DNA of 64,000 nucleotides, taken from IMG/VR virus record IMGVR_UViG_3300021387_000118, positions 77,168-141,167 of that record, one strand, 5' to 3'. The notes below the pieces were generated by a model. That model was not told where the DNA came from, ran no database searches, and saw only the letters and a list, made by a program, of their open reading frames with translations. The position numbers and the translations under genes were made by a program. This stretch comes from a virus. Shown piece after piece: positions 7,448-30,304 of the stretch (the stretch's first letter is position 1; each line of letters opens with the position of its first letter).

Positions 7448-7465
7448 TAGTAACACCTCCAATCA

Positions 7466-10287: not shown

Positions 10288-10503
10288 GTATTAATCCTCC
10301 GAACAAATTGCTAATATAATCTTTGAAACACTTTTCATCAAAGGCTTCCCAAAATCGTCAATCAATGCAATAGCAAAATACGTTATCCAATTATTCATAT
10401 AATTTTCCTATTCAATATTCCAATCTGGATTTTCAATGTTATAATTAAATTTTTCAATATAATTATTGATATTTGTTAAATTTGTTGGCATATATCTTCT
10501 CCT

Positions 10504-11508: not shown

Positions 11509-11579
11509 GCTATCACTCCTTTCTATATATTTAAAATACTAATATATTATTTAATAAACAAATATATGTCAATCAATAT

Positions 11580-12089
11580 TTACTTTTTTTCAACAACATC
11601 TTCTTCTGTTTTTATTTTGATATAATTTTTAATTTTAGCTATGGTATTATTCAGAGCATTAAGAAGCATAGAATTATTAACAGAGACAGTTCCATATGTT
11701 CCGTTTATTTCACAATTCTCAACAATAGTATTTACAATGCTTTCAATGATATCAACCAAATTAACATCATCAGGACAATGTTCATTCAAATGATGTCTTT
11801 CAAGTTGAAAATGATTTCGTCTCCATTCCGTAGAAGAGAAGTCAACTCCATTTTCAATGCTATTACATAAATCAACATAATAATCGCCTTTATATTGATC
11901 CCTAATCTTTGTATAATCATGATCTCGTCCGGCAGCAATTATTTCATCTGCAATTGCTTGCATTATATAACGAACATTATCTATATGTTCTTTATTAATG
12001 CTTTCAAATTCAGTTAATTTCGGGGCTGTTTGACGTGCTGGATTTAAAAAATGATTTGGATTGGGTTTTATTACCAATTTTTCATTCAC
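11580..12089 (-). CDS. hypothetical protein
   Basis: 169-aa ORF with a GTG start. Confidence 0.4.
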   Translation of the reverse strand: MNEKLVIKPNPNHFLNPARQTAPKLTEFESINKEHIDNVRYIMQAIADEIIAAGRDHDYTKIRDQYKGDYYVDLCNSIENGVDFSSTEWRRNHFQLERHHLNEHCPDDVNLVDIIESIVNTIVENCEINGTYGTVSVNNSMLLNALNNTIAKIKNYIKIKTEEDVVEKK

Positions 12090-12091
12090 TA

Positions 12092-12355
12092 TTAATCACC
12101 TCCAATGATATTATGATCACGCTCACACCACAAATTATATGCTTCTTTACTTTCTTCTTTAGAAAAACAGAAGAGGACCATCTTTTTCCCTGGTCTCTTC
12201 CTATCATCAGTAAGCATTATATCAAGTGGCATAATACCACACTCGTTCATATAAAAATCAACCTATGATAAGTTAACAATATGTAATACGTCTTTGCTAA
12301 AATAATTATATTTTCTTCCCGTTACTGGACTTCTTTTCCAAAATTCTGTTCCCAT
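12092..12355 (-). CDS. small hypothetical protein (one TAG)
   Basis: ATG at 12355 with AAGGAGAAAACGG as SD. 88 codons, in frame. Confidence 0.4.
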
Positions 12356-12376
12356 CCGTTTTCTCCTTTTCTTCCT

Positions 12377-12438
12377 AAAAATGGTAAAAAATGGGGTCCC
12401 TTGCTTCAAATACGTATATTGAATGCGAGGCTACCCCG
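12377..12438 (-). terminator. rho-independent terminator (second copy of the ACCCCATTTTTTACCATTTTT motif)
   Basis: Same motif as at 5826..5874, a hairpin followed by a T-run. Confidence 0.45.
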
Positions 12439-12439
12439 T

Positions 12440-12987
12440 ATAGTTTTTTTATAATCACATTCACAATCTTTTATAGCTCACTGGCTTAGTAATAAGACCA
12501 CCAACTTTGACATTGATAGCCCCAATAATTATTTCTTTCTAGAAGCTTTCGTTCTAGTAGAATTCTTTTCTTTTGAAACTTTAATTTCTTCTGATCCTTC
12601 CGTAGTAGCTAATTGCTCATCGGTAAGGATAGATTCCTCTTTAACATCAACATCTTTCACTTCTTCTGCCTTTTCATCAATATCGAAAATTTCTCTAATC
12701 TCTCTAGCGGCACCAGAAGTATATTTTAATACATCATCAATATTTGGTTTTAATTCACTCATTTTTCTTTGAGCTTCTTTCTTAGAGATTTCATTTCCAC
12801 GATATGCATGCCAAAGATCACTTAACTCCAAACATTTTCTATCATGATATAAAAAACGCCACATCTCATCTGGTTTACTTTCTTTACAGTGAGGACAGAA
12901 AGAATAATGAGTTCCGCACATTAAACAAATTCGTTCGTTTCTCATGTTGACCTCCTTATAGTTTAGTTTGTCTATTTTAAATAGCAA
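12440..12987 (-). CDS. zinc-ribbon protein encoded downstream of the intron-associated HNH gene
   Basis: CLMCGTHYSFCPHCKES motif. The annotated stop at 12529 is a TAG, and the frame continues to a TGA near 12440. Confidence 0.4.
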
Positions 12988-13912
12988 TTAAGCTATAATT
13001 ATTTTCAAGTTTACATTTTCTAATTGTATCAAATATCCATGGTGGATCTATTTCGAAAGATATGTCTCCAGGATGAAGAATATTGCCAGACAAATATGAA
13101 TCTATACTAAATGGTATATCTATACCTAAAGATTTTCTTTTACTATTAATATATTCTTCTAACTGTTCTGGAGTGTTATTATGTGTTCCATAAAGATTAT
13201 GAAAAGAGCCAATACATTTTATGTGATGGCAATTAGAACATAATAGTATTCCATTTAATATATCATATTTAATATCTTCATGCTCCGCAAAGTTATTAAT
13301 ATGATGGGCGTTCTTTTCGATATTTGAATATTCTCCACAGCATTGACAAGTATACCAATCCTTAGCATAAATAGCATCTCTCCATTTATTATAATTATCA
13401 GACATACGATCCGATATTAACTTTGGAGTAATTCCACCTTTCCAGTTAGAATTATTATTCCCAGATCTATGAACTTTTCTATCTCCGCATGTGACTTGTT
13501 TCCCATCTTTTAGGGACCCAGCAAATACAGAAACTTCGTTTCCACATGAACACAAACATTTCCAATATGTTCCATTTCCGTTATGGTTGTTGGTTGCATC
13601 AAAATCTGGACCAATAACTGTTAATTCTCCATAAACATTACCAGTAATATCTTTCATAATTGGATATTCTTTCATACATTCAACACATCTAAAATTGCGT
13701 TGATCCGCATTTTTATTAGTAATAACATATACAAGTCTTTTAGAACTTTTATGAATATTATTAGGACATTTAAAATACACTGGTTTTGCTGAGGCATATG
13801 TAATATCATTTGGTCCAAATCCAGTCATATCATAATCCCATCTATCTAATAAATCATATCGATTATTATCAATGCACCATTGATAAAAAGTATATTTTTG
13901 TTTTTTAGCCAT
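12977..13912 (-). CDS. HNH homing endonuclease
   Basis: HHINNF...LLCSNCHH HNH motif with multiple Cys/His zinc knuckles. Lies just downstream of group I core R1. Confidence 0.7.
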   Translation of the reverse strand: MAKKQKYTFYQWCIDNNRYDLLDRWDYDMTGFGPNDITYASAKPVYFKCPNNIHKSSKRLVYVITNKNADQRNFRCVECMKEYPIMKDITGNVYGELTVIGPDFDATNNHNGNGTYWKCLCSCGNEVSVFAGSLKDGKQVTCGDRKVHRSGNNNSNWKGGITPKLISDRMSDNYNKWRDAIYAKDWYTCQCCGEYSNIEKNAHHINNFAEHEDIKYDILNGILLCSNCHHIKCIGSFHNLYGTHNNTPEQLEEYINSKRKSLGIDIPFSIDSYLSGNILHPGDISFEIDPPWIFDTIRKCKLENNYSLIAI

Positions 13913-14149
13913 AATTCATTTCTCCTTTAATGAAATCTCCTAAAAATTAGATAAAAGAGAGGGTAGGAGTTCCCTCTCTTATCGATCTGGATCGCGACTT
14001 CCAAATCTATTTATTCTGGATCGTGCCTAATAGAAAGTATCTATCAGGCACGACTATATTATAGTTTAATAAATGATATTTATCAAGCTATAGAAGTTCC
14101 ACTAACCACGAGATCTTCATCTGGATAGTAGATGTAATAGAGGCTAGAC

Positions 14150-14535
14150 GTACCAGCACAATACCAAATGTTCACATGAGGTCGTTAATCTCATGCGGTT
14201 CTCTAATGAACTCCTTATTATTTCTAATAAGAGCAGACTATATCTTTCTCCAAAAATGGAGTTACCCACTTCGATACACTTGTATCTACTTCCTTACGGA
14301 ATAGTCGTTGAGGTTTATCCTATTCGGATCTTACCTGCTGATTACCCATTTATATTAATGTTTAGGATTTAACCATGCATCATCTTATAATTTTTTTCTG
14401 TTTTCACAACATTCACGTTTAGACATGTTTCATTCTTCCGTTGTAGTATTATAAGCTTTAGGGGGTTCCAGCATTTCAAGTAACACGCTGTATATAAATA
14501 CAATATGCACATTACTGTACATACGGACCATTGTG
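14150..14535 (-). ncRNA. group I intron ribozyme core (R1)
   Basis: On the minus strand the R element UCAACGACUAU (plus 14291..14301) precedes the S element AAGAUAUAGUCU (plus 14235..14246), with P7 pairing GACUAU/AUAGUC. Starts at the TAA of the upstream structural ORF. Confidence 0.6.
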
Positions 14536-15126
14536 TTAATCCACGTTAAGATTTCCGCTGAAATCAATTTCCTGAGTCTCTGCATCGAGAGAGATCGTCA
14601 TGGAAGGATCAGCTGCAAATCTCGGAATTACAACATAGCAAGGACGAAGAGAATCCTCACAGGGATCGCCCATTGCACAGAACAGAGTAAGCTTAACAAG
14701 ATCAGAACTTACAGCTGTCGTATTCTGGAGCATAGCACCAGAAGTAACATTTCTTTCCCACTTTACAAGATACTGAGTGGGAGCATTTGTATCACCTTCT
14801 GCCCTGGGAGGAAGAGTGATCTTAGTATTAGAACCAGTACCAGAAATCTTATCCTCAACAACACTAACATCAAGAGCAACATCATTTGCTCCATTGCCGA
14901 ACAAACCGATTACACGAACAGAACCATGGGTGTATTCTGCAATGTTAACTTCCGAACCAGCGGGAGCAACAACAATCTTAGGCATAATGATAGACTGTCC
15001 GCTACCAGCACCAGCATACTGAATAGCATGACCGGACTGAGCATTAATAGCCGCCGGATGAAGCAGTGCGTTCGTAGCGGTAAAGGTACCAGTCTTAGAA
15101 CGATAAGTTGTACGGATAATATTCAA
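14536..15126 (-). CDS. structural protein, probable 5' exon ahead of intron R1
   Basis: 196-aa ORF. The terminal TAA sits at the intron boundary. A stop-rich 230-nt gap separates it from a small upstream ORF. Confidence 0.45.
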   Translation of the reverse strand: MNIIRTTYRSKTGTFTATNALLHPAAINAQSGHAIQYAGAGSGQSIIMPKIVVAPAGSEVNIAEYTHGSVRVIGLFGNGANDVALDVSVVEDKISGTGSNTKITLPPRAEGDTNAPTQYLVKWERNVTSGAMLQNTTAVSSDLVKLTLFCAMGDPCEDSLRPCYVVIPRFAADPSMTISLDAETQEIDFSGNLNVD

Positions 15127-15359
15127 TATGTGTTATCACATAAACTTTTTATTTTATGTTTCTTGTGATTCTTTTTCTCACAAGTTCAGCATATATTTTC
15201 TTCTTGAGGAGGATATACAAGAAGTCGGACACTCGTGGAGATATTATTTCAATCTCTATGCGTTACACTATATGAACAGTTCGGTATTCACAATCACAGT
15301 GTTTACCGATTTTGCCCGATTATCATTTATACATCACTATATAAAGGAGCAATATTAAT

Positions 15360-15510
15360 TACCCTTCTTATCCGTAATATCAGTGGAATCAGCACTGATT
15401 TCGATCTGAGCAGAACTCAGCTAATCAAGAGCGTACTCGATATTGCCGTTCTTCTCAGCTACACCATAAAGAATTTCATCAATATAATGATTACCAAGTT
15501 TAAAAGCCAT
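15360..15510 (-). CDS. small ORF (MAFKLGNHYIDE...), possibly the N-terminal part of the same structural gene
   Basis: ATG at 15510 with AGGAGG as SD. End approximate. Confidence 0.3.
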
Positions 15511-15773
15511 AGTATTTTCCTCCTTACATTATTAAAAAGAGCCAGTTTTCGCTGGCCCAATATCAATACGAATAATTTTTGTCCGTTAGCGACTATGTCA
15601 AACCATAGCCGGATATATCAGCCTTGATCCTTAAGATTCTTGGCTTTGGAGACACTGTTATTAGTATCTCTTACAATTTCTCTCATAAAATTATATTCTT
15701 CTGGTTTGATATCTTTTGCGGATATAAACCCAGAATACATACCCTTCATTAGAGCAGTAGCCTATTCATATAT

Positions 15774-16229
15774 CTATAATCTGCTTACAGAATCATAAAA
15801 TTCCATTACTCCAACTTCGTTTAATTCACTTAACTTATACTTAAATCCAGGATGATTAACACAAGCTGATATAAGAGGTTGAATGGAAAAAGATTTATGT
15901 TTTCCCTTCTCAGCCTCTTTCTTTGCCCTTTCGGCAGCTCGTCTATCTTTCGATATATACCAGCTTTTCAAATTGTTATCATGAGTTATTTTTTCTTCAG
16001 GAAACATATTAAAAACAGCGCGAAGATATTGAGAAAAATGATTATGTACATCTGCATTAATCTCAACCTGGTCCTCGTTATTCCACATGACAATTTCTCC
16101 GATTTGGTCTTCGTCATCGGACTGGGGTTGCTGTTGTTTTACCATTACTTCAAATTTCTGCAAATCTAAATCGCCAAAAATTAGTTTGCATACTTCTGGA
16201 TCTATTTGTTTGTATAACATCGTAAACAA
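15774..16229 (-). CDS. hypothetical late protein (fragment of a longer TAG-containing gene)
   Basis: ORF-track fragment only. Upstream extent not resolved. Confidence 0.3.
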   Translation of the reverse strand: MFTMLYKQIDPEVCKLIFGDLDLQKFEVMVKQQQPQSDDEDQIGEIVMWNNEDQVEINADVHNHFSQYLRAVFNMFPEEKITHDNNLKSWYISKDRRAAERAKKEAEKGKHKSFSIQPLISACVNHPGFKYKLSELNEVGVMEFYDSVSRL

Positions 16230-16286
16230 CTAAAAGTCAGAAATTTCATTCCAATCAATATTAAATTCCCATAGCATTAGCCTATA

Positions 16287-16619
16287 CTATGTAGTATTTC
16301 CAATAATAATATTTAATGACTGATAAAATTTTTCTTCACCTACATCTACAATATCTCCTATGGTAGGAGAGTAGATAGTAACACTTCCAACGGTATTTTC
16401 TAAGTCTATGACATATGGTCGCCCAAAATACATTTTGAGCATATCAAATTCAACTTTTGGATTACGTGGCATTAATTGACCTCGGAATAATCTAAGCTGT
16501 ACCATTTCGTGTTTTCGCAAGGTTATTATCAGTAAGCTATTCAAATATAATTGTTCTAGTAGCATAATCATTATCTGTAATACTAGGGATGTCAGATACG
16601 CAATGAATCTAACCGCCAA
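16287..16619 (-). CDS. hypothetical late protein (fragment)
   Basis: ORF-track fragment. Confidence 0.3.
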   Translation of the reverse strand: MAVRFIAYLTSLVLQIMIMLLEQLYLNSLLIITLRKHEMVQLRLFRGQLMPRNPKVEFDMLKMYFGRPYVIDLENTVGSVTIYSPTIGDIVDVGEEKFYQSLNIIIGNTT

Positions 16620-17046
16620 ATAAATTACTCCAATTAAACATATCCAGTATTAATGCACCAAGCAAATCATGCCTTGCGATCCCAGTATGTTTTTCAATAT
16701 TATTCTTCTCCTCACATAAAATATAAAACGTGATCTGCAATAATTTCATTTTGGAGTTGTAACGTTCAAGTTCTCTAAATCCTACTTCGTAACAAATAAA
16801 ATTCTAAACATTATGTTGTGTTGGATGAATTTGGTAAGCCGGAAGCAAGTTAATGCCAAGATAGTCGCTCGGATCTGCCTCAACATCCTATAGCTCCTTA
16901 TTATTTAATAGATATATAATTAGTTCGTTTTCTATGAGTTTTTTTTTAATAATTTCCTTGATTCGAATATCATCAGAATCAACAGTATTTTTAAGATTAA
17001 GGAGAGTTTTAAGTTGTTCATCATTCAATTCCATATTATCCCTCCT

Positions 17047-17619
17047 TATAATGGCAATAGTTCAACGTCAAGAGTTGAAGTAATATCACCAGATGTGTTT
17101 TTAATTGTCAGTATTTTACCTATGTATGTATCATCGCCAAGAAATTTAACTTTAACTCTATTTCCTGTATACGTCAAAGTTAACAAGTCAATTGGAATAT
17201 CTTCACCATCTATGAAAAATTCCCAAGTTCCGACTGGATGATCTTCGATTATTTCATTTTCATAATCGTAATAATTAATAGTAAATGTTTTTGCCGACCC
17301 GCCAATTCTAATTTGACTACGACCTGAACACGTAATCTTTGATGTGATAGAAGAGTAGGCATCATTATCTTCAATAACTTGAATAGGATCAATGTTACTA
17401 GAATAGTAGTTTGCCCATTTGCCTATTACATTTCCGTCGTCATCTCTTTCTATATAATCGTTATGTTGATCAAATACGTCCTAAGTTAAAGTAACCCTAC
17501 AAATTCCATTTGGAGAAATACGATTAACTTTTGATATGAGCCACGCACGAGGCTCTGTTTCAACATTTGCATCAATGATCATACGAATATTATAAAATAA
17601 TGTTTCGGTATCTCTAGTC
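17047..17619 (-). CDS. late structural hypothetical protein (191 codons, one TAG)
   Basis: Translated by hand. ATG at 17619, TAA at 17047, one in-frame TAG. Confidence 0.45.
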
Positions 17620-17989
17620 ATTGGCACAGCAAATTTTTGCTAGTCTTCGACCGTCTATATTTTATAATCTAACCAGATTCCAGAATTGTTCTCGATGTTA
17701 CTTTATCAGTTCGTTACTCTGACAAAGGAATAACTATATCATTATAATTTACTTTATACTTTTCATATTTTCTTTTTAAATACATATCTGCGTCCGTGTA
17801 AAGCCAATCTAAAAATTTCTTCACTTGTTTTGTTCCGCTAAAAGACAACACTTTTGTAACACCATTATGACATGAAGCATCATAAATATTTCCACACGGA
17901 ATATTTAATTCATTTCTCAAATATTCCTATAAATCTCTACAAAAAGACTCTGTAGATGTAAATGTAATTAATGGTTGAAATTTTCCGCT

Positions 17990-18655
17990 CTATGTATAAT
18001 GTGGACAAAATGAACCGTCGCCATCAAAATAGCCAAGGACAAAAAATTTTAATAACTTGTCTGGAACACAAGTTGGAAATTCCAAAATCAAACTTTTATT
18101 TTTTACCACTCCATTTTCAGACAACTTGTCACTAATATGTTTGCTAAATATGCTCAACCTATATTGATTAGAATAATTATAACCAAAATCATGTTTATTG
18201 CTATAATCTATATATTCTAACGGTCTTTCATACTTTAATTCTTCTCGCATACGTTCTAATATATATTTATCTTGTTCTTCTAAAGATATAGTAACGGTTT
18301 GCTTTGGCGTATAATTAGACCCATCAGCATAAAGAAATCCCAATATATAAGCCTTGTTTGGTGTATCAATAACGTCAAAATAATTTTCATCTAATGAATA
18401 TTTTCTTTGCCCATTGCCAACTCTCTTAACACCATATTGATCCAGTACTTTAGCAATAACTTTATGCCCAACATTATATTGTTTACCAATATAAACTGTA
18501 GACTTTCCATTTTTATACATATCCACAATATCTTGTTTTTGTTCGTCTGAAAAATCTTTATATGTAAATATTTTACTCATATTATTCCTCCTAAAAATAA
18601 TTTGATATATAAAAACAGTAATCTTTGTATTAGGAGTACAAAGAAAGGAGGCCAA
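17990..18655 (-). CDS. LAGLIDADG homing endonuclease (double motif)
   Basis: Two motifs: LGFLYADGS and LGYFDGDGS. An N-terminal HTH. Immediately downstream of intron core R2. Confidence 0.75.
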   Translation of the reverse strand: MASFLCTPNTKITVFIYQIIFRRNNMSKIFTYKDFSDEQKQDIVDMYKNGKSTVYIGKQYNVGHKVIAKVLDQYGVKRVGNGQRKYSLDENYFDVIDTPNKAYILGFLYADGSNYTPKQTVTISLEEQDKYILERMREELKYERPLEYIDYSNKHDFGYNYSNQYRLSIFSKHISDKLSENGVVKNKSLILEFPTCVPDKLLKFFVLGYFDGDGSFCPHYT

Positions 18656-18661
18656 TCCCTG

Positions 18662-19009
18662 TCCTGTTTTTTACATTTTAATAGTTATTCTTTCTTATAT
18701 TTTCATACAAGAGCAGATCATATCAATACCATATCTTACGACTTAGGTAGTTCCCGTTACCTCACTTGAGGACATGATCGTTGAACTTTACCCTATTCGG
18801 GTCTTAGCTGCGAATTATCCAATCCAATAATTTTTTGACATTCACGCATAGTTATATTTCATACTTACGTTGTAGTATATTGGCTCTAAGGAACTCCTCG
18901 CAATTAGAGAACTTTCGACATTAACTTTCATTAATGAAGCGCACAAATTTTACGAATTCTGGCTTCTTAGTACAGCTGGACACTAATATTTACGTCCGTT
19001 AAAAATCCA
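18662..19009 (-). ncRNA. group I intron ribozyme core (R2)
   Basis: R element CAACGAUCAUG (plus 18772..18786) and S element GAUAUGAUCUGCUC (plus 18715..18724). P7 is GAUCAU/AUGAUC, covarying relative to R1. Shares 5' motifs with R1 and R3. Confidence 0.55.
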
Positions 19010-19502
19010 CTACATAAGATAATCGCATCTTAATATTTCAAATGTAGGAAATTGATTACCATTATAATTTGCCTTATCAACAACAAGCCATTTGTTGTAA
19101 GTACCATCTTCATGCATTATATCCACATAACATCCAATTGGGAAAATTGTGTCATACCGATTTCCCAATACTTCTTCGTAATATTCTAGATTACATTCTT
19201 GTCCAGGCTGCATTTGCAACCAAAATGTTACCTAATCTTTATCATATGTCTGTTTGGCATGACGAATAAATTTGATATTCAACGCTGTTTTCTCCATATC
19301 ATCTTCTGGATGTAAGTTATTCAACTTAAGAGCCTCATAAGATTTTTGGTCGTGATAGTAATCATAAATATAGCATATCTATGATTGGATATCCTGATCC
19401 CAAGTACCGATCATAATTTGATCGCTTTGTTTTTTTCTAGCCCTACCAGGAGTATGAGATGACCCATGGATACTCTGAAAATTTTTAAAAGTGATTGCCA
19501 TA
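19010..19502 (-). CDS. late hypothetical protein, candidate host gene of intron R2 (two TAG)
   Basis: ATG near 19502. ORF 19010..19219 shares the frame. The terminal codon is TAG. Confidence 0.35.
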
Positions 19503-19948
19503 TCAATCACCTTCCTTTATTTTCATAATTTCAGATCCAGCATCTAATATCAGTTTTCTATAATTAGACCAGTTAAAACATTCGCTATTATACTCAATTA
19601 GTGCAGCCTATAATAAACTCATTGTTTCCACAAGTTCTGGCGGCTCAAGTAAAATACTGTTTAGACCGTTAAGCCTATTTTGTAAATCACGGAATGCTTC
19701 CGCGACATTAATATCTGGATAGTTAGATTTTGTATTTCTATCTACATATAGTAATAAGAAAAAAATAGACTTTCTTAAAGAAGCCTTAGTTTGATGGATT
19801 TGTTTAGAAGAATAAGAACCGTAGAGTGTTTTCATGAAGTTTCCACCCCGTTTATAACACTAAGAGAGTACGCACGATCTCTAATAAGTTTTCGAAGATC
19901 AGTTTGGGACTTAGTATATAAATCTTTCATTTCAGCTAAGTGTTGAGC

Positions 19949-20299
19949 CTAGCTAAAAAACTTTTGTTCGCTATTTGACAATAGTTGACTTGTCAAAAGC
20001 GTAGAGTGGTAACGTGGAGATGCCCATTCACTTACCATTCCCAATCCCAAAACTTCCTCTACAAAATCCTTATCAGAATCTTCATCTAAAGCGTCTCTTA
20101 ATTCATATTCAACTTCTTCCATATCATCATCCATCACTACAGATAAAAACAGTCTACGTACCATTGGTTTAGATAACGTAGACCGCAGATATCCATTCAG
20201 CACTTCTTTTACCAATTTTTCACTTAATCCAGACATTTCATAATCTTTAACTCGTAAATAAAACCGAGAATAGATTTCATCGTATTCCGAGGCTGCCAT
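19949..20299 (-). CDS. hypothetical protein
   Basis: 116-aa ORF. Confidence 0.35.
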   Translation of the reverse strand: MAASEYDEIYSRFYLRVKDYEMSGLSEKLVKEVLNGYLRSTLSKPMVRRLFLSVVMDDDMEEVEYELRDALDEDSDKDFVEEVLGLGMVSEWASPRYHSTLLTSQLLSNSEQKFFS

Positions 20300-20465
20300 A
20301 ATTCAACCCCCTTTAATCAGCGATAACACTTCTAAAATCTGTCCCATAAACATCATCGATGATTTTAATTTTCTTCAGAGAATCAAATGTGCCATCTTCA
20401 ATCTTTTCTGCAACATGAACCTGTAAAGACTTAGCAAGTCCTTTTGGGAGTTGTTCAAGAGCAGA

Positions 20466-20885
20466 CTAGAAAACATTAACCGGAAGATTAAGAATTTCAT
20501 CCAAATCTTTTACAGAGTAAACCTCTTCCTCATAGAACTTAGCCACATCAGCCCAGCGAGGATTTTCCAGCAGTTCCTCATCTTCAATGATAAAATGAGG
20601 GGCATAAATATAATTGGATCTTCTACTCTTTAAAGCAAATAGGTCTTGATATTCAATTTCACATTCATCTCCGAAATTTTCAAAAACATAATACTGCCCA
20701 GATTTACCAGCACAACCAAGCCATCCAGTAGTTACAGAACGACAAAGAATAAGATCATTTTGATTAAACTGTCTAGGCTCTTTCTTTTTCGGTTCCTTAA
20801 CAGTTGGTTCTTCGGCAACATTTGTAACCTTCTCAGTTGTTTCTGGCACAGTTTTAGCTATTTTTCTTTTTGCAGTTGTAGCCAT
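20466..20885 (-). CDS. head-module hypothetical protein (ends in TAG, probably longer)
   Basis: 139-aa ORF directly downstream of the MCP gene. Confidence 0.35.
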   Translation of the reverse strand: MATTAKRKIAKTVPETTEKVTNVAEEPTVKEPKKKEPRQFNQNDLILCRSVTTGWLGCAGKSGQYYVFENFGDECEIEYQDLFALKSRRSNYIYAPHFIIEDEELLENPRWADVAKFYEEEVYSVKDLDEILNLPVNVF

Positions 20886-20911
20886 ATCCTTTTAGTCCTT
20901 TCAAATAATTA

Positions 20912-22030
20912 TTACTGAGTGATAACCCAGGTACCAAAATATCTGCCAATAAGCGTAGAAACACCAAGCTTAGTAAGATACTTAACCTCATAGGTCATAT
21001 CCTGGTTAACGGTATTATCAGTAACTTCTTTGATCATAGCATCTCCCTCATAAACGAGTTTGACAAATCTGTTATCAGCAACAGGCATGATCAGAAGGAA
21101 GTCAAGATTATTCTGACCATACTTAACAAGCTTCGTAGTAGTATCATTCTTTGCAAATACTTGCGGAATCTCTACAACACGAGTTCCTTCAAATACGCCA
21201 ACATGACCAAGGTTTCTATGGTCGGTTCTGTCTTCCTTAGCAATCCAATTTACATCAGCCAGATTCTTCAGCTTGGAAAGAGCAGACTTCGTTCCCATAA
21301 TAACAACTTCAGTGCCACGGTTTGCAGCCTGAACATCCTCTACCATAGTTACAAAAGTATCATGAGCAGCAGCATCAAGAGCAGCAGTCTTATAGAACTG
21401 ATTAGAGCCAGGAAGAACCTTCTGACCAGCTTCCATAACGGCCTTGAATACAACCTCATCAACATACTTATCCATTGCTTCATAGATCGCATTTACAAGA
21501 CGAGTCCAGTCAGCACGACCAGTCATAACACGCTCAAATTCCTCGTACACTCCAAGACCAACCCAATATGTCGGAACACGGAAAGTCTCGCCAATTCCAA
21601 GGCGCTGTCTGTCAATATCCCAGTGATCGCCACTGAGCTTACCGACCGTCAGAACTGTTTCGTCTGCCGTCTCAAATTCGTTGGTATCACCAAGAGCAAG
21701 ATTCTTAACTTCTACAAAGTCGCGGAAGAACTCATTATCAGTCCAACCAGAAGTAAGCATATTATCAACTGTATCCTCGATAACCTCGAAGATCTCATTT
21801 TTATGACGATTGATTGCTCTACGAATTTCCTTCTTAGAAGCAGTCTCATCAATACCCATAATCAGGCGGAATTTCTCCTTGATCATAGCGTCAGCATCAG
21901 CCTTGGTAATACCAGACTGGAAAACTCCTCTGTTGTAATCAGCAAGAAGCTGAGAGAAGTTCATATAGGTAGACTCATCATTATCAAATGCGGCCTAAGT
22001 AGTAGCAGCAAAATTCATAAATTTACTCAT
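20912..22030 (-). CDS. major capsid protein (HK97-like), one in-frame TAG
   Basis: 373 codons in frame. ATG at 22030 with AAAGGAGGG as SD. TAG at codon 12. Capsid-like composition. Confidence 0.7.
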
Positions 22031-22048
22031 ATCATTTCCCTCCTTTCA

Positions 22049-22579
22049 TTAACCATTCTTGCGTACAAAAATCTTATAGAATTTTCCATTAGTACGAGTA
22101 ATTACATCAACAATTTCACCATAGAAAGCAACGGAAGCAGCTGGCTTTGCAGCCTATGCTTTCAGATCATAACCATCAGCAACAATATACTGACCCTTTG
22201 CAAGAGGAGTACTTGTGCCAATAGCGGTAATACCATTTTCAGATACAGTGAACTTGTCACCAACAAGAAGATCATAAACTCTCATGATCTCATCTTTGCC
22301 ATTGTAGAAATTGTGTTCATATGTAGCCGCCTTGGGTCTTTCATCAGGACCAATCGGTACACTTAAAATAAGACCAACTCTAGAAGTAGAAGTTGGCTGA
22401 ACCATCGTGAAATATTCGTTGTCAACCCAAGCCATATCATCAAGGTTAACAAGTTTGCCGTTGTCGATATCAGCGCCAGCACGCACGTTAAATATATGCT
22501 TTGCATCATATGTAGCCTAGAGATTGGTACTCTCAGCCACAACATGCTTATTAACAGCCTGTAAAAATGCATTAATCAT
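22049..22579 (-). CDS. head auxiliary/decoration-like protein (177 codons, two TAG)
   Basis: ATG at 22579 and TAA at 22049 in one frame through two TAGs. Confidence 0.45.
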
Positions 22580-22627
22580 AGCTATTCATTTCTCCTTTCC
22601 TTAATAAATAAATATTATTGTTTAATA

Positions 22628-24478
22628 TTATTTCTTTTTAAAATTTTTAAAAAGTCCACCATAAGGAGACTTTTCTTCTTCATTATTATTGCCAGTTGTC
22701 ATAAACACCATACCGCGTTTCTTCTCGTGTTTACCAGAGAAAGTACTGTAGTTGGATTTCATAAACTTGGCATAAACAAGATCAGCTTTATTAGTGAGAT
22801 CCTCAACGGAATACTCATCCATATGATCTTTGAGTTCCTTGAACTCTTCAAAATCTGCCATTACGGAATAATCCTCCGCAGTAAGAACTGCTTCACGAGC
22901 GGAATGGAGTTCTTTGGCTTTATAAGAATTAAGTTCGGTTTCGATAGAAGAGTAGTCTGACTTCATCTTATCAAGTTTTGCAATCTCGTCCGCCGTTAAA
23001 TACTGAGCATATACTTGAACTCTGTCGCCTTTAAGAGAGTACACATCTTTCTTCACAGAGTATTCTTGGCGATAATGTCTATCACCCCAGAAATCATGCA
23101 TCACGCAATAGCGACCATCATCCTCAAAAACATCGCAATAATACCAAGTATTATCAGACTCCGAATATGTATCATTAACGAGAGTTGTTACGGCATTAAT
23201 CTTATCTGCAAGAGATACTGCAAAATCTTTCTTGACTCCGTCAATAGTAACAGAATAATTAAGACTATTCTCAACTCTTGTACCAGTAGAATCTTCATCC
23301 TCAATAGCAGAAACAGTCTGATGTTCTTCTTCGTCTTCAGACTCATCATCAGCAATATCACCAGCGGTAGAACCGTTGTTAGCAGAACTATCACCTGTGT
23401 TATCATCAGCCGGATCTTCATCAGCAAAATCATCAACCACTTCAGGAGTTTCTGCGGTTTCTTCAGTCACTTCCTTTTCAGAAGCTTCCGTTTCAACTAC
23501 GGGATTTTCCTCTTCTGCAGAACTTTCATTTTCCTTGGAAGAAGAATCTTCGGAGTCATTGGCAGTTTCAAACGCATTAGCAAAAGCAGTTTCAAGTTCC
23601 TCATCACTCATGTTAGAATAATCAAAAGTAACATCATCAACTGTTTTATTATACTTCGCCAGAAGTTCATTAAACTTGTCCATTTCTTTCGGTTTACCTC
23701 CTTCCTTAGAATTTTCGGCAAAAGCCTCTATATAATCAAGCTTCGACATTATCTCAGCAATGATTTCTTCTTTTAACTGTGCTTTATTAATAATAGAATT
23801 ATTATCAGCACTAAAATCTTCAATTTGCAAATATGCGCCTTGCATCCCTTCTTGGACTTCTTCGCCAGTATCTGGATCGGTTCCAAGTAAAGTCACGCCC
23901 ATTACATCAACATCTTCTAAAAGAAGACCATCTTCAACTGAGTAACTCATCTCATTGATGCATAATTCGGCGGAAACTTTTGTTCCACCTTTTCTTTCAA
24001 TAATTTCAGCAGCATCAGTATATTCTCTGGGAATTGCAATCTTTGCATAAATATACTAACGATCTTCATGATCTGGATCTTGTTTCATATATGGTTTGTC
24101 AGAGGTGAAACATCCAACTTGTTTCTCAATATATGTCCTAGATCCATCTTCATTAAATTCTATGGCATGATAAGTAAAATCTCTTTCGCCATTCACCTCA
24201 GTAAAATCAGCGAGAACAGGCTTGTAAGCAATCTTAGAAAGACAACTCTTTGCGCCCTTCTCAGTGAGATTAGATTTGTTACGATTACGACCCGTATGCA
24301 TCAGTTTAATATTTCCATAAAATGTTAATGGATCTTCGTCATCAGTGGCTTCAAAATTTTCGCAAGGTATTTGCACATGAATACTATACCCAGAAGTCTT
24401 AGAATTAAACTATGTAAAATTCTAATCTTGACAGAATCTAACAAGATCGTCAATAGTTAATATTTTTGACCTACGCAT
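22628..24478 (-). CDS. scaffold-like acidic protein (617 codons, at least 4 in-frame TAG)
   Basis: ATG at 24478 with AGGAGGTG as SD. ORFs 24056..24376 and 22628..23950 share its frame. Long D/E-rich segment. Confidence 0.5.
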
Positions 24479-24505
24479 ATTTCACCTCCTTATTAATTAC
24501 ATATT

Positions 24506-24688
24506 TTAAAACGTCAAGACATCAGTATAATTCATCTTCATATCTTGAGATGAAAACTGAATTTTATTTGGTTCATTTATAAAAACATATTTGTTGCCAG
24601 ATTTTGGCAGTTCTTGAAAACCAGCATGGCGCAAAATTTCTGCGGTAACTGGATCAGTTGTATTAATAAATTGATTTTTTTGTTTCAT
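24506..24688 (-). CDS. small hypothetical protein
   Basis: 60-aa ORF. Confidence 0.3.
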   Translation of the reverse strand: MKQKNQFINTTDPVTAEILRHAGFQELPKSGNKYVFINEPNKIQFSSQDMKMNYTDVLTF

Positions 24689-24706
24689 ATATATATCACC
24701 TACTTG

Positions 24707-25162
24707 TTAATTCTTTCTTTTGCTAAATGTATCTGTCTGTGAATGACAATTTGGACAAAGAAACCTCAAATTTTCAATCCTGTTATCATTATGAACACCA
24801 TTTATATGATCTAACTATAATGATAGCGGACGATCATTCCACATACCAACATTGCCACAAATGGCACATTTATATTCCAATAAATCATTATTGATAATTC
24901 TAATCTTTAATCTTGATAAATTTTGATATGTAGAATTTTCAACTAATATCTCATCTAATGAATATTTTGTATTGTTTGGATTAAAGCTACCAGAGAAGTG
25001 ACTTGTCGAAATGTTTAATTCCTAACACCTTTTTTTGATTAAGTCGTAAGGATATCTGCCATTCTTCGTATAACCCAATTTTAAGACACATTGCAAATAC
25101 GAAGTAGAATTACTGATTAATTCTTTAAATTCATCATCTGATAATTTATATACTTTATTCAT
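24707..25162 (-). CDS. HNH homing endonuclease (two in-frame TAG)
   Basis: LDHINGVHNDNRIENLRFLCPNCH motif. GGAGGTAAAAGC SD ahead of the ATG. TAA at 24707, in frame. Confidence 0.7.
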
Positions 25163-25268
25163 GCTTTTACCTCCTATAGTAAAATATCCTAGAATTTAAA
25201 TGTGAGAGGAGAGGTCTAGGATCACCTCTCATACATGGTTAATTACTCCATGTATTTCTCACATTTGA

Positions 25269-25555
25269 CAGCCCATCTCCGATTCGAACGGAGGTTACCT
25301 CCTTCAGAGGGATATCACGGTTTTCTTACTACATTATGTTTCCATAACAGCATCTGCTTTGTAGTCTGGATCATCTCTTCAACTCAGAGAGTTGGGAACT
25401 ATATGATCTCTGCGCATTTAAATTAGCTCAGGATTGCCATATGAATAAAATCACTTAGGGTTTTCCTGAATTAGGTTCCTTTACATTTATGTTTCACAAC
25501 ATAACGCTCCACAAATAATGAGAGACCGGTGCACTAGCCGCTGTGCTAATGGGCT
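25269..25555 (-). tRNA. intron-split amber suppressor tRNA (anticodon CUA after splicing); exons 25555..25521 and 25324..25269
   Basis: 5' exon reads AGCCCAT-UA-GCAC/AGCGGCUA/GUGC-A-CCGGU-CUCU. 3' exon reads AAA-ACCGU, a 23-nt variable arm, CUCCG-UUCGAAU-CGGAG and AUGGGCU-G. Acceptor is 7/7 complementary, with a canonical D-arm and T-arm. Splicing gives the anticodon loop CUCUAAA. Confidence 0.6.
25325..25520 (-). ncRNA. group I intron (R3, 196 nt) inside the tRNA anticodon loop
   Basis: P1 pairs exon CUCU with IGS GGAG (25510..25507), giving the U.G pair at the splice site. R element CAGAGAUCAUAU (plus 25401..25412). S element AGAUGAUCCAG (plus 25366..25376). Terminal G at 25325. Confidence 0.6.
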
Positions 25556-25565
25556 ATAAGAAAAA

Positions 25566-25588
25566 AGAGCAGGATAATATCCTGCTCT
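25566..25588 (-). terminator. hairpin terminator after the portal gene
   Basis: 9-bp stem AGAGCAGGA/UCCUGCUCU followed by a U-run on the minus strand. Confidence 0.5.
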
Positions 25589-25594
25589 TAAAAA

Positions 25595-27226
25595 TCATTT
25601 ATCATCAACTATATTTCTAGTCCTTTCTGCACTGCCAGATATCTCATCGTCACTAACGCGATTTCTTCCGGCAGTAGAATCATCATTGCCAGTAGATTTA
25701 CGAGTAGCAGTGGTATCCCCCCATGCAGTATTATAACTAGATAATAATGGCACCATTATATCCTTAATTCCAATAGCATTTTCAAAAATAATCTAGCAAT
25801 ATGCCTCATATGGTGTATATCCTTGCGCTTCCAAATAAACCAAAGCACTAGATCCAAGCGTTGCGGCCTATCTAGTTGCCTCTATAAAAGTATCTTCATT
25901 GTACCATGTTTGTCTCAGTATACTAAATAAATAATTCTCACTGATATTCTTATCTATATAATATTGAAAATTATTCTCTAAACGCTCTACAAGAAGATAA
26001 GCATAAGCGCTGTCATTATTTAATGAATGTTTAATTCCAGCTGCGGAATTTGCATCAGCAGAAGAAACAACTGGTTCACTAACACCAATAGTCTTATATA
26101 AGTTTCTAATACTATTATTTACTATGTCAGTAGTGTCAGCTGTAGAATTCTAGTTAAATGAGACAGTCTCCAAAGACAGTCCTGGTAAAAGTCCAACTCC
26201 TACCAAATCAGGTACTATTGACTGCACCGCATCTTTATAAACAGATGCAATCTCTTCTGATACTTTAAAGTCATCTACTACATCACCATCTATAAGCGGA
26301 ATTCCAAGAAGAAGCAGCTTATAATTGTCCAATTCCGTCTTGTCCGCAAGGAGCTAGGAGTAGTCAATTATATCCAATAAATCAATAAAACTAGAACTTA
26401 AAAACGGTAAAGGATTTTCAAATTCATCGTCCAAAGAAGAGAGGAGAGTAATAGTATATTCACTCGGTATTATAAACCATCTAGTTTCTTGTTTATTCGA
26501 AGAATTCTGATATTCTCTCCATGCGTCCTAAAAACATTGATGCCAACATCCAGACGTATCTCCATTAATACCTTCCACAAATATTACATTTTGACCAATA
26601 CTAAAATATGTAAGATCAAACGCAACGATCCATTGTCCAGCTTCGTTCTTACCTCTTATCTTGCAATACTCCATTGGTAGCATATGCAAGAACATACCGT
26701 CTTCGCCATTATCATAGACAAACCCATAATAAACTCCATCTCTAATCGCAATAGCCATAGCCACTGCAAACTCTGTTTTGAAATTAAATTTATTTATATG
26801 TTTTAATACATTTTCATACTCCTTGATAATCTTATTAGTATTTGGACTCTTTGCAAATTCCATTTTCTGAACTAAATTATAGTTGTATAATGGCATTGTT
26901 GCATAATATAAAATAACCTTTTTATATAACGTTGACATACGCCATAAGAATCTCGAAACACCAACTATTTGATTTCTATAAGAGTATGGATTCGTCAAAT
27001 ATTGCTTGATTAACGATTTCGTATATTGAGTGAAACTCTGAGTACGATTTCTTGCAACATCCTGTAAAATCAATTCCTTTAATTTTTCGGTTTTTTTAAA
27101 ATCAAGGGCCGTAGGTCTACTGACAACCTCTTGCTCATCATTTTTCTTTTTTGGTAGTAAAGACTATGTCATAACTTTACTACGCTCATCAATCAGCGCC
27201 TCTTGCGCTTTAGGTTTTCTAGGCAT
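25595..27226 (-). CDS. portal protein (544 codons, several in-frame TAG), TGA stop
   Basis: ATG at 27226 with AAGGAGG as SD. ORFs 26528..27073 and 26150..26332 share its frame. TGA stop at 25595..25597. Sits between terminase and head genes. Confidence 0.6.
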
Positions 27227-27245
27227 GAAGCGCCTCCTTTCTTTA

Positions 27246-29003
27246 TCAACAATTATAAGTAGTAGAACGGCGAGGTGGAGTTATAGAAATATATTTAAAT
27301 AACTAATTTGTTGATTGCTTTGGTCTTAATTTTAATTCTAACTAACACATACACCAATAATTATAAGCAATAGAAGAATAGCGGTCTTTTCGCATACCAG
27401 ACTATTCTTTAACTTTAATATTACCGTTCTTAACTTCGTGATCTAATTTAATTAATTCATATTCTGCCATAGTGGTTTGTAAATATGGCATTTTTATATA
27501 AGCTCGATCTGTTGGAGAAAGCTTAGAATAAGGCTTATAAGATTTTGAAATCTCTTCTTCGCATTCCTAATCTGAAATAAGAAAACTGATTCTTCCATTT
27601 TGTATCCCGTTTCTTAGTAAAACACATATTTCATTATTAAAATTGGCACCCGCTTTAACGGACCAGACCACTTTATTGGCATCTTTAACCTTACAGCGAA
27701 TCGCCATATCATCATCATTAATACATGTTAATGCCTTATAGGTTTTGCCAGTTGAAGAATCGTATTGATCTTTACAAATATAGTCAAAGATTCCAATTCC
27801 CAAACCTCCTGTATCAACTACTAAATCGGTACATTTATATTCATAAAAATAGCGCATAACAATAATTCCAAGTTCATCTGTTGTCAACCCTTCAAAAGTC
27901 TCTCCATAAACAAAATTTGAATGATAACTTGTATCATCCTATTGGATTGCGCTATTAATATACAAGGCAGCAGCATCGTTTTTCTTTTTCTTTGTTGAAC
28001 CCATAAGAGCAACGTCAACAGAAAGAATTCTTTTTTCTGTTGCAGAAACATCAGGAATTCGAATTTTATCATTATAGAATTTTAATGGTAGTAAAGCATT
28101 TTTGATTTTTCTCTATTTATTTATCTCTTCCCACTTAAAGAGATTATCACCATCATCTCCGACCCACATGCATTCCATTTCCATAGTAAAAGCGAGTTCA
28201 TTAAAGTCCGCCTCTGATTTTTCATCCATTACTTGCTCCCTAGATAAGAGTCCTTCCTTAATACTCAATTGATACGGCAATCCACAACAAAAATATCTTT
28301 TAGAATCATCAAAGAAATTAGCCACATATGCTTGTAGTTTTTTCCATGCCCACGAACTTTTAAAATACGCACTAGACATATATATTTCCTTATTTCGTTC
28401 TTGAAGATGTGAATATTCTGGTTTATTTAAATAACCAGGTTGTCTGGGGCTAGTTAAAAACTTCCTAATAACAAGATTCAAAATAGTTTCATCAACCATG
28501 CGGAATTCATCAACAACAATTATATTTGCCCTAGCGCCACGAGCATTATCGGTACTAGTCCTCGTTGTAATCCAAGATCCATTTTTAAACATGATGATCG
28601 CATCGTTCTATCCTATATTACATTTCTCAATTTCGGTACATAATATAGGTGACATTTTCATTAGTTCATCCTATATTTTTAAAAGCACACCATTAGCCTG
28701 TTTAAGAGTTCCAGAACAAACAACAATCTTACTCCCAGGATATAAAATACATCTTACAACACAGAAGAGCGCAGTAAGCCATGATTTTGACATACCACGA
28801 GCAGCAATGAACATAAAATAATTATAATGCATCATTGCCCATATTAATATTTTCTAAAATAATTTTAAATGTATTCCAAGTACTTCTTCCACAAATCTTT
28901 CTGGATTTGCTCTATAATAAGCTGCTCGAAAAGCAACCGTATTCATTATTTTCTATTCCTTATCCTGAGCAATTTCGCGAATAGTTTTTTTTCTTTCTTT
29001 CAT
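27246..29003 (-). CDS. terL: terminase large subunit (586 codons, at least 6 in-frame TAG), TGA stop
   Basis: Walker-B-like IIVVDEF and nuclease-like VVDTGGLGIGIFDY. ATG at 29003 overlaps the upstream TAA. Fragments 28113..28592 and 27567..27887 are in the same frame. Confidence 0.65.
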
Positions 29004-30061
29004 TATAATTCATCGACCTCAGATCCGAATATTTGATCAAACAAAGTTTCAGAATCCGTATCTTCATCATATTGCGGTTTATCAACTGTATATTTTTTGA
29101 TAAACCTTTCATATGTATGAGAAAATGCATTTTTTAACCCCATCATTCGAGACATATGACCTTTAAAAAATACATCAAGATATAAGCCTATCTTATTAAC
29201 TGAACGAAATTCTTCGTCAGGCTCAGGAATAGGTTTCTCATTTTCCCATTTTTGTATCAGTTGCCCAAACGTTTTTGCTTCCGTAAGTGCATTTGAATTA
29301 TTTTGATTTGGTTTTAAAGACATGCTGCCCATAAGATCCTAAAGTGTTTTATCTAATTCTTTCGTATCTTTTCCGGTTCTTTGAGCCTTATCAATCTCTA
29401 ATTCTTTAAAACAAATTCGTTTAAACAATATTTCTTGCGCCTTATTCTCACAGGCATAACGTTTAATCCAGTCTTGATACTCAGATTCTAAAAATAATAA
29501 ATCTGAATTACTATATCCATCACCAAAACGTTTTTTTGCTTGTTTAAGCGTTCTGGAGTTTTCATTTATTTCTTCTTCATCCTTATCTAAATAATCAGCC
29601 GGAAGTTCTGAATCCTTCCAAGTTTTCCCACGCCAATTTGGAAGCGATTTTATAACCGTTATATAATGCTAATAAGCAGTACTTCTATGTTTATCCTATA
29701 TATCTGCACCGCAAGAAGTGAGAGCAGATTGATACATGGAATCAATGTACGGAAGATCCATCATCTTTAACACATCCATTGTTTTTTCACGATTATCCGT
29801 ATACTGATTTGTTTTCTTATCATAATCACAAGCCATCCCAATCAAACATTTTTTGCATATAGGAAATAATCCGCTTGAGTAGTTCTTATCACTATAAAAA
29901 GCATCAACATTATGGAATTCATTACATTTATGACAAAAGTATAAATTACCATCTAATATTCTATTATAATCTTTGGCGAGATTGTTATAGGCTTGCCTAA
30001 TCTATGCAACGCCAGTTTTACGAACCTCGTCTTCTGTCAAAGCTGGTTTCAGCCTAATCAT
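29003..30061 (-). CDS. late Zn-finger protein (353 codons, 4 in-frame TAG); small-terminase candidate by position
   Basis: ATG at 30061 with GGAGATGAGATA as SD. Continuous frame to the TAA at 29003 through 4 TAGs. CHKCNEFH..CKKC motif. Confidence 0.4.
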
Positions 30062-30304
30062 TATCTCATCTCCTTTTAATCATCATAAATAAAAAAAATC
30101 GCCGTCATATATCCAACGATTAGTATTGACAATCAAGAATGGCATTTTCTCCCCTCCAATAACGGGAAATCTAGGTAACGATCCTAGCTTTTGCGTTTAA
30201 CAGCCGCACGTACTTCCAATGTACTAATTTCCCGACAAAATTTAAAATAGAGAGGGCAGTAGCCCTCTCAAAAAGTATAGTGTTGATAATACTATACTGG
30301 AGAC

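Follow-up and report, generated by a model that had tools for sequence, protein, structure and literature searches.

An amber-suppressor tRNA gene of a TAG-recoded phage, split in its anticodon by a predicted mobile group I intron

We analyzed 64,000 nt of the virus record IMGVR_UViG_3300021387_000118 (record positions 77,168 to 141,167), a stretch that is referred to below as the window and whose numbering applies to all positions given without a contig handle (handles of the form L009 denote related contigs and loci). On the minus strand of the window lies a locus that we consider likely to be the gene of a Gln-inserting amber-suppressor tRNA, tRNA(CUA), of an SPbeta-like TAG-recoded phage, split by a mobile intron of the self-splicing type. 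The sequence features of the split tRNA and of its intron exceed chance by far. An earlier reading of the locus, made from the sequence only, had proposed a tRNA(CUA) gene interrupted after U35 by a group I intron; an uninterrupted allele from another phage and a covariance model of the intron family, both described below, supported this proposal.

The split tRNA(CUA) gene and its intron

When the 2 exons were joined in silico, the resulting 91-nt sequence was folded by ARAGORN into a cloverleaf with anticodon CTA. The gene agrees in position and strand with that of the sequence-only reading, and all exon features named there (U8A9, the D arm, the UUCGAAU T arm, the AUGGGCU acceptor strand, and G73) are present on the minus strand. 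CCA is absent from its 3′ end, where it is not encoded. The intron is positioned between anticodon nucleotides U35 and A36, and because it splits the anticodon the tRNA would be functional only after intron removal, as had been argued before. The hallmarks previously assigned to the 196-nt intron, namely the internal guide sequence GGAG, the P7 strands GAUCAU/AUGAUC, and the terminal G at 25325, were likewise found in place. The split gene was missed in the window by default ARAGORN and by an Rfam scan at gathering thresholds, which reported 2 other tRNAs only (Asn and Pro), and no second amber-suppressor candidate was found in the 64-kb window.

A BLAST search of the locus and the surrounding 12 kb against a GenBank phage collection gave no match, and exact-pattern scans with the exon or intron-core sequences of the window found nothing in IMG/VR or in GTDB genomes. 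Synteny alone gave no homologs either because in the TerL relatives (L001-L007) the locus is absent between the portal gene and YonD. Homologs of an HNH endonuclease encoded after the tRNA led to L009, where a second tRNA(CUA) is interrupted at the identical position and has the same HNH gene behind it. The consensus of the 3′ exons of the window and L009 was used to retrieve the family from 13 IMG/VR contigs and 43 metagenome contigs, and had no match in GTDB genomes. Among the 58 family loci (window and L009 included), 39 are uninterrupted, 18 are split at the same phosphodiester bond, and 1 is a loop variant; this count includes some contigs that are in both collections and reduces to 10 distinct introns without an open reading frame (ORF) plus the intron of L053. 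A further locus, L106, was found after the count. The names of the metagenome records in which the relatives occur suggest ruminant studies, and Rfam cow-rumen RNAs are present on some of the related contigs.

Across the bond where the introns insert, the uninterrupted alleles read ...CCGGTCTCT|AAAACCGT..., and one of them corresponds directly to the window gene. The uninterrupted tRNA of L043 agrees at 91/91 positions with the joined exons of the window and lacks segment 25520..25325 exactly to the nucleotide. The gene order of L043 is that of the window (portal, terminator, tRNA, YonD-like gene), with flanking genes that are 69-85% identical, and the Rfam tRNA model RF00005 scores this allele at 49.9 bits (gathering score 29). 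Near-identical exons with and without an intron were also found in L019 (intron) and L040 (none), and in the pair L018/L023. L106 is a closer relative of the window (TerL 87% identical) and has at the same site a different tRNA(CUA) with the intron subtype of the window; the RNA element and HNH gene seen in the window come after this tRNA as well.

The Rfam group I intron model RF00028 gave a match at 25532..25353 (43.3 bits, E = 1.3e-9 in an 801-nt scan) that fell short of the gathering score of 50; the family member L022 reached 56 bits, above that score. A covariance model specific to the family, R1, was built from 8 introns of other phages, with the window excluded and P7 left out as a pseudoknot. 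On the 64-kb window, R1 recovered 25531..25316 at full length with 110.4 bits (E = 2.4e-30), and it scored the L016 intron, also outside the training set, at 112.8 bits. Covariation was scored on an alignment of the 10 distinct introns, in which 85.3% of the cells are in standard pairs compared with 29-45% when partners were slid by 1-3 columns, and 23 pairs show changes on both sides; these values were reached by 0 of 500 shuffles. P3 is paired in 100% of the cells and covaries at 5/5 pairs. P7 is also 100% paired and covaries at 3/6 pairs (GAUCAU/AUGAUC in the window, GACUAU/AUAGUC, and GACUUU/AAAGUC), though neither the alignment nor the model was fitted to it. Covariation was further detected at 3/5 pairs of P8 and in the outer stem of P9 (ACUAC/GUAGU versus ACCAC/GUGGU); P4 is 88% paired, and P6 is weak (53% paired).

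The P1 helix drawn in the sequence-only reading, CUCU/GGAG with a U.G wobble at the cleavage site, is strongly conserved: the U.G at the 5′ splice site and the C-G and U-A pairs are each kept in 10/10 distinct introns. A U precedes each of the 10 aligned introns, and G is the last nucleotide of these introns and of those of L053 and L106. The intron-less alleles set the intron boundary independently. The peripheral elements P2, P5, P6, and P9 are built differently between subtypes and form the weak part of the alignment. In its intron mode, ARAGORN shifted the splice site by 2 bases and called a tRNA-Leu(aag); we rejected this call because its junction is inconsistent with the U.G pair and the omega-G and is contradicted by the intron-less alleles.

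Because tRNA-Leu(UAA) genes likewise contain introns that R1 detects, inserted at the classical CUU/AAAA site (L016, 73 bits; L017, 33 bits), the suppressor intron family can be tied to the IC3 tRNA introns. P5 is short in the window intron family and has no P5abc extension. IC3 is given as the subgroup of all 4 classical bacterial tRNA introns by Williams (bioRxiv 10.1101/2020.01.27.920355). The sequence ...YU|AAAA... is common to both target sites, which suggests a possible path of the intron between tRNA genes. Introns of another subtype (L013, L018, L019, L034, and L037) measure 173-176 nt; their P9 has no branches, and their P5 is very short. This subtype is smaller than the Azoarcus intron of roughly 205 nt, a minimal natural group I intron.

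TAG decoding and the identity of the tRNA

The sequence-only reading had placed the locus inside a TAG-recoded phage, and this was confirmed by the fusion of late/structural ORFs upon TAG read-through. Read-through merges minus-strand fragments of 1..30079 into long ORFs, one example being a tape-measure-like ORF of 1,708 aa with 41 in-frame TAGs, and the structural genes contain well over 100 in-frame TAG codons. The minus-strand ORFs from 30305 to 43531 have almost no in-frame TAG. TerL has 10 TAG positions, and 3 invariant columns among them are Q in 118-119 of 120 homologs. Because some of these Qs could be code-15 translations, we checked the codons in a standard-code relative (L004-L006). 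At 29 aligned window-TAG positions, drawn from TerL, portal, and 5 other structural-module ORFs, this relative has CAA or CAG in 12 cases, while every other residue occurs 4 times at most (Ser, 3). At aligned TAG positions, recoded relatives have TAG (32), CAA (25), or CAG (13). In the HNH gene, the TAG of codon 116 falls on the Q of a conserved LQLDH motif, which is encoded by CAA in L053. The alignments thus indicate that TAG is Gln in the structural genes of the window phage. The earlier caution that TAG may not encode Gln here is not supported by these alignments or by the Gln-like acceptor features of the tRNA described below.

A putative tyrosine-recombinase-like ORF (10504..11550, minus strand) was assigned by eye. 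Beside it, a run of TAG-free ORFs (11580..15600) lies within the otherwise recoded structural module. This fits the report that recoded temperate phages keep an integrase without in-frame stops (bioRxiv 10.1101/2021.08.26.457843).

To assess the tRNA itself, we analyzed cloverleaf covariation over 27 distinct alleles. The cloverleaf is 93.2% paired compared with 36-55% in slid controls, and compensatory changes occur at 7/7 acceptor pairs, 3/4 D-stem pairs, and 4/5 T-stem pairs. Gln identity is determined by G73, a weak or U1-A72 pair, G2, the 10-25 pair, U35, and G36, and the acceptor-side elements also apply to the amidotransferase route (PMC9976931). In the family, G73 occurs in 22/27 distinct alleles, G2 and G10-C25 are present, and the 1:72 pair is weak (A-U, U-A, or mismatched); in the anticodon, U35 is present and position 36 is A, where the list of Gln elements has G36. 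The acceptor-end features (G73, weak 1:72, G2, and G10) are like those of the genuine tRNA-Gln genes of the same phage contigs, which are also resembled by the subfamily UGGGGCG...CGCCCUA-G-CCA. The long variable arm would be no obstacle to Gln because changes in the acceptor stem alone sufficed to give an amber suppressor tRNA-Ser Gln identity (PMC9976931). Taken together with the TAG alignments, these features make it most likely that tRNA(CUA) carries Gln.

The variable arm of 23 nt has an apex that resembles the anticodon loop of tRNA-Gln. Arm columns 50/60, which were free in the first search pattern, are C-G in 23 alleles, G-C in 3, and U-A in 1, and this covariation therefore indicates a stem closing a 7-nt loop, CUCUGAA or CUUUGAA. 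In a second scan, with the arm entirely free and L106 added, the stems vary yet pair and the apex always contains Y-U-G-A. Read as a 7-nt loop, the apex has CUG or UUG, the two Gln anticodons, as its middle triplet (L082 reads UUUUGAU), and the genuine tRNA-Gln genes of the same contigs have the loop CUYUGAC (CU-YUG-AC versus CU-YUG-AA in the arm). An alternative fold of the arm, a CCUC/GAGG stem with a short loop, was rejected because it conflicts with the covariation of columns 50/60; minimum-free-energy folds of many arms favour loops of 3-5 nt, which leaves the register uncertain, and its anticodon-like form rests on limited covariation. As a tentative proposal that we think rather improbable, the variable arm may be a decoy anticodon, such that the Gln-charging enzyme would read the arm and the spliced CUA would read UAG. 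The arm may then supply the U35 and G36 identity that the CUA anticodon lacks. If true, one anticodon of this ribozyme-assembled tRNA would serve charging and another decoding, and the anticodon-like arm suggests an answer to how host synthetases charge phage amber suppressors with Gln. Our literature search, of incomplete coverage, found no description of an anticodon-like variable arm.

Probable intron mobility and alternative explanations

Downstream of the split tRNA, the window, L009, and L106 each have a free-standing HNH endonuclease gene, whose window product matches Pfam PF01844 (E = 1.4e-5, 25.6 bits; cutoff 21.4). In L053, an HNH ORF whose product is 55% identical to the window protein lies inside a 673-nt version of the intron, and L043 lacks both the intron and a segment of roughly 590 nt that bears the HNH gene. 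An exception to this linkage is found in L008 and L011, where the HNH gene is beside a different, uninterrupted tRNA(CUA)-like gene. Homing by an intron and an endonuclease, free-standing endonucleases included, is established (PMC3984707, PMC2790892). Because the intron is present or absent among near-identical alleles and is linked to a homing-type HNH gene, we read it as a mobile and probably near-neutral selfish element. The HNH gene has 2 in-frame TAGs; the endonuclease would therefore be made only when the spliced suppressor is available.

In the mechanism that we propose, a mobile, compact IC3-related intron would have entered the anticodon between U35 and A36. In the transcript, exon CUCU would pair with the guide GGAG to form P1 with the U.G wobble at the 5′ splice site, and we infer that a two-step guanosine-initiated transesterification almost certainly excises the intron. 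Rejoining of the exons would produce the anticodon loop CUCUAAA, and the spliced tRNA would insert Gln at in-frame UAG codons of the structural genes. Homing with the HNH endonuclease would spread the intron; this enzyme is encoded downstream of the tRNA here and inside the intron in another phage, and its synthesis would in turn need the spliced suppressor tRNA. The intron would be a selfish passenger made harmless by splicing and probably not an evolved translational switch. A kinetic or timing effect of splicing on the code switch is possible, with nothing here in its support.

The sequence-only reading had gone further and proposed a ribozyme-gated switch for late-gene translation, in which splicing would set when and how much suppressor appears and thereby time TAG = Gln and the late genes; splicing might then proceed slowly or require GTP, Mg2+, or a protein cofactor. 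The unspliced tRNA would indeed be non-functional, the gene immediately follows a terminator within the recoded late module and is the sole amber-suppressor candidate within 64 kb, and suppressor-tRNA supply has been proposed as a code-switch timer (Borges et al., bioRxiv 10.1101/2021.08.26.457843; Kienbeck et al., PMC10879173). However, about two thirds of the alleles (39/58) are intron-less, including the syntenic L043 with its identical exons and L040, the counterpart of the intron-bearing L019. A selfish homing element typically shows such a pattern of presence and absence and a linked HNH gene, similar phages have related introns in ordinary tRNA-Leu genes, and we saw no sequence sign of regulated splicing. 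We therefore consider such a switch unlikely. That TAG means something other than Gln, the tRNA being a type II (Ser, Leu, or Tyr) suppressor, was suggested by the 23-nt variable arm and by G73, which is the discriminator of bacterial tRNA-Ser as well. This is extremely unlikely in light of the 12 Gln codons versus 3 Ser codons at the 29 aligned TAGs of the standard-code relative, the 3 TerL columns of almost invariant Q, the second HNH TAG on the LQLDH glutamine that is CAA in L053, and an acceptor end like that of genuine phage tRNA-Gln genes; a type II amber suppressor can moreover be switched to Gln by its acceptor stem alone (PMC9976931).

We think it very unlikely that the gene is dead, with the tRNA inactivated by the insertion or by ribozyme decay and a suppressor from outside or a host factor used instead. 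The genome is visible in part only, the RF00028 score is under the gathering score, and P5, P6, and P10 of the window copy are weak, but the intact exons match an uninterrupted allele exactly, the core helices P1, P3, P4, P7, P8, and P9 are intact with a full-length fit to the family model, and U-1 and the omega-G are retained. The closer relative L106 also keeps the same intron subtype at the same site in a different tRNA(CUA), and suppression is indispensable because of the more than 100 in-frame TAGs of the structural genes. Several points weigh against our own reading of a Gln-inserting suppressor split by a mobile intron. Splicing, aminoacylation, and suppression are all inferred from sequence. 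RF00028 gives the window copy 43.3 bits where the gathering score is 50, and P5 and P6 of this copy are poorly defined, the P5 fold being not resolved and P6 doubtful; P10 is also weak (A.U, an A.G mismatch, and two A.U). The window is 64 kb of a genome of probably 110-160 kb, and another suppressor tRNA could lie elsewhere. The exon identity between the window and L043 could reflect a very recent insertion and not continued function. The homing role of the HNH enzyme at the tRNA target is a prediction, and DNA packaging is another function that HNH genes beside terminase and portal genes can have.

Anticodon-loop group I introns, code-15 phage suppressor tRNAs, and phage homing by an intron and an HNH endonuclease are each known separately. 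Our literature search, again with incomplete coverage, returned no suppressor tRNA split by a group I intron and no intron-bearing tRNA genes in recoded phages. The IC3 introns of tRNA-Leu(UAA) ("Leu.3Ug"), tRNA-Arg(CCU), tRNA-fMet, and tRNA-Ile(CAU, Azoarcus) share with the window family the anticodon-loop site, the U.G wobble, the omega-G, a compact core, GNRA loops on P2 and P9, and matches to the same Rfam family (the window copy below and L022 above the gathering score), and related copies occur in tRNA-Leu(UAA) of the same kind of phage (L016 and L017). In contrast to them, the gene interrupted here is an amber-suppressor tRNA(CUA) in phage and not cellular genomes, the insertion is at nt 35/36 ("4Ug" in Williams' numbering), and some members are just 173-176 nt long. 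A further 17 bacterial tRNA intron classes are reported in the Williams preprint (bioRxiv 10.1101/2020.01.27.920355), and a suppressor class may be among them. With the code-15 phage suppressors, the window gene shares a phage-encoded tRNA(CUA) and TAG = Gln mainly in late/structural genes; where those suppressors occur with theta ribozymes, a small ribozyme lies at the 3′ end of the tRNA, whereas here a large one lies within it. The recoding papers bioRxiv 10.1101/2021.08.26.457843, PMC7886860, and PMC10879173 make no mention of an intron in a suppressor tRNA, nor do they name the SPbeta-like clade to which the window phage belongs.

The arrangement also recalls collaborative or trans homing (T4 mobE with I-TevIII; S-PM2 F-CphI with the psbA intron), in that an intron without an ORF is found with an endonuclease gene adjoining the interrupted gene, that a relative (L053) has the endonuclease in the intron, and that intron and endonuclease are both present in the window and both absent in L043. 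It differs in that the target is a tRNA gene and that translation of the endonuclease, with its 2 TAGs, would require what the interrupted gene encodes; the HNH homologs of L008 and L011 beside a different, uninterrupted gene also have to be counted here. With SPbeta (bnrdE and bnrdF introns) and other Bacillota phages, the window phage shares an SPbeta-like backbone, and it carries several group I introns and endonuclease genes, among them the second intron and the LAGLIDADG ORF described below. Unlike the present intron, those of the SPbeta type interrupt protein-coding genes, and SPbeta is not recoded.

If our reading is right, a single RNA-catalysed reaction, the predicted splicing, underlies the entire alternative code that the phage uses in its structural genes. 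As the homing endonuclease would depend in turn on the spliced tRNA, the selfish element and its host gene would form a dependency loop of an unusual kind. An intron-split suppressor escapes default tRNA detection. Split suppressors may help to explain recoded phages that seem to have no suppressor tRNA; they are a concrete and searchable cause of missing suppressors, with about a third of the family loci split. The family also provides a natural test set, with matched intron-plus and intron-minus alleles and very small introns (about 173-196 nt).

Gene neighbourhood and further RNA elements

The positions of the features are collected in Table 1.

Table 1. Positions of the features of the split tRNA(CUA) locus, its neighbours, and related elements in other phage contigs
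Feature	Position	Strand	Description
tRNA(CUA) 5′ exon	25555..25521	-	AGCCCAU-UA-GCAC-AGCGGCUA-GUGC-A-CCGGU-CUCU; nt 1-35: acceptor 5′ strand, U8 A9, D arm, anticodon-stem 5′ strand, and anticodon-loop part C32 U33 C34 U35
tRNA(CUA) 3′ exon	25324..25269	-	AAA-ACCGU, 23-nt variable arm, CUCCG-UUCGAAU-CGGAG, AUGGGCU, G73; nt 36-73: A36 A37 A38, anticodon-stem 3′ strand, variable arm, T arm, acceptor 3′ strand
Long variable arm	25294..25316	-	23 nt; apex 25309..25303 = CUCUGAA, Gln-anticodon-loop-like
Group I intron	25520..25325	-	196 nt, without ORF, IC3-like; begins after U35, omega-G at 25325
Internal guide sequence GGAG (P1 3′ strand)	25510..25507	-	pairs with exon C32-U35 (CUCU)
P2 hairpin	25487..25504	-	UUAUGUU-GUGA-AACAUAA, GNRA loop; 5 pairs changed on both sides across the family
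P3 5′ strand GGAAC	25475..25479	-	partner 25399..25395
P3 3′ strand GUUCC	25395..25399	-	partner of GGAAC
P4-P5 domain	25427..25470	-	P4 UUCAGG (25470..25465) with CCUGAG (25432..25427), P5 inside
P7 5′ strand GAUCAU (R element)	25403..25408	-	covariation
P7 3′ strand AUGAUC (S element)	25369..25374	-	preceded by J8/7 AAGAG (25379..25375)
P8 hairpin	25380..25394	-	CAACUC-UCU-GAGUUG; 94% paired, 3 covarying pairs
P9 domain	25328..25365	-	outer stem ACUACA/UGUAGU around 2 hairpins, one with a GAAA loop
Three-way-junction RNA between tRNA and HNH gene	25195..25268	-	outer stem and 2 hairpins, then U-run
Free-standing HNH endonuclease gene	25162..24707	-	151 aa; in-frame TAGs at codons 47 and 116
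Terminator-like hairpin after portal	25565..25589	-	11-bp stem, loop of 3, then TTTTCTTATA
Portal	27280..25595	-	
TerL	29009..27246	-	
tRNA-Leu(UAA) split genes	L016 7275..7619; L017 581..732		phage contigs of 170-180 kb; related group I introns
Three-way-junction RNA homologs	L008 ~9905..9985; L009 ~4800..4880; L011 ~9885..9965; L106 ~13745..13820		
ROOL, cow-rumen-3, cow-rumen-4, and skipping-rope RNAs	L018 2084..2675; L034 1488..2060, 21..160; L013 7110..7174; L019 6612..6679		ROOL about 320 bits

The tRNA(CUA) gene starts 5 nt after the T-run of the terminator hairpin of the portal gene, and the order of hairpin and tRNA is the same in L009, L043, L008, L011, and L106. No sigma-70-like promoter for the tRNA was found on its strand. 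Downstream of the HNH gene, the minus strand encodes a YonD-like protein and the major capsid protein (YonB family), and an SPbeta-like backbone is indicated by the Pfam families YonG, YonJ, YonD, YonB, and YomW on the relatives.

The three-way-junction RNA has 21 pairs, 10 of them compensatory, across the window, L008, L009, and L011, and is also present in L106. One of its hairpin loops reads CUCCU/UCCUA and is anti-Shine-Dalgarno-like. It matched no Rfam family even at E <= 10. A theta (HDV-like) or other known ribozyme at this position was rejected on account of the lack of an Rfam match and of the fold, which is a plain three-way junction. The RNA could be a terminator, an attenuator, or a translational control element for the endonuclease. 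Theta ribozymes have been reported beside phage suppressor tRNAs (PMC10879173), and the 3′ trailers of uninterrupted tRNA(CUA) genes in L013, L015, L020, L024, and others, which read ...GGCGC..CAGCAA...GCGCCGAG, look theta-ribozyme-like by eye; the window has the three-way-junction RNA there instead.

The tRNA(CUA)-like gene upstream of the HNH homologs in L008 (~9830..9900) and L011 (~9810..9880) is non-canonical. Its loop reads CUCUAAA, only one nucleotide separates its acceptor stem from its D stem, and GGCAGCA replaces UUCGAAU in the T-loop; ARAGORN made no call for it. This gene may be another class of hidden amber suppressor. Insertions with no match to the group I model were seen in 2 other phage tRNA genes, one of ~115 nt in or near the anticodon loop (L016 3575..3763) and one of ~45 nt (L018 1167..1295).

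Large phage contigs that bear the family encode ROOL, cow-rumen-3, cow-rumen-4, and skipping-rope RNAs together with large tRNA arrays. In the window itself, a second group I intron was detected at 14214..14548 (minus strand) within the TAG-free block at 11.5-15.6 kb, with an RF00028 score of 53.4 bits, above the gathering score, when the region was scanned alone. Pfam searches with ORFs 12977..13915, 14536..15132, and 15618..16649 near this intron gave nothing conclusive. Weak intron-like matches of R1 were also obtained at 15167..15371 (25.9 bits), at 14194..14379, and at 18680..18962, the last of which adjoins a LAGLIDADG ORF (17714..18670).

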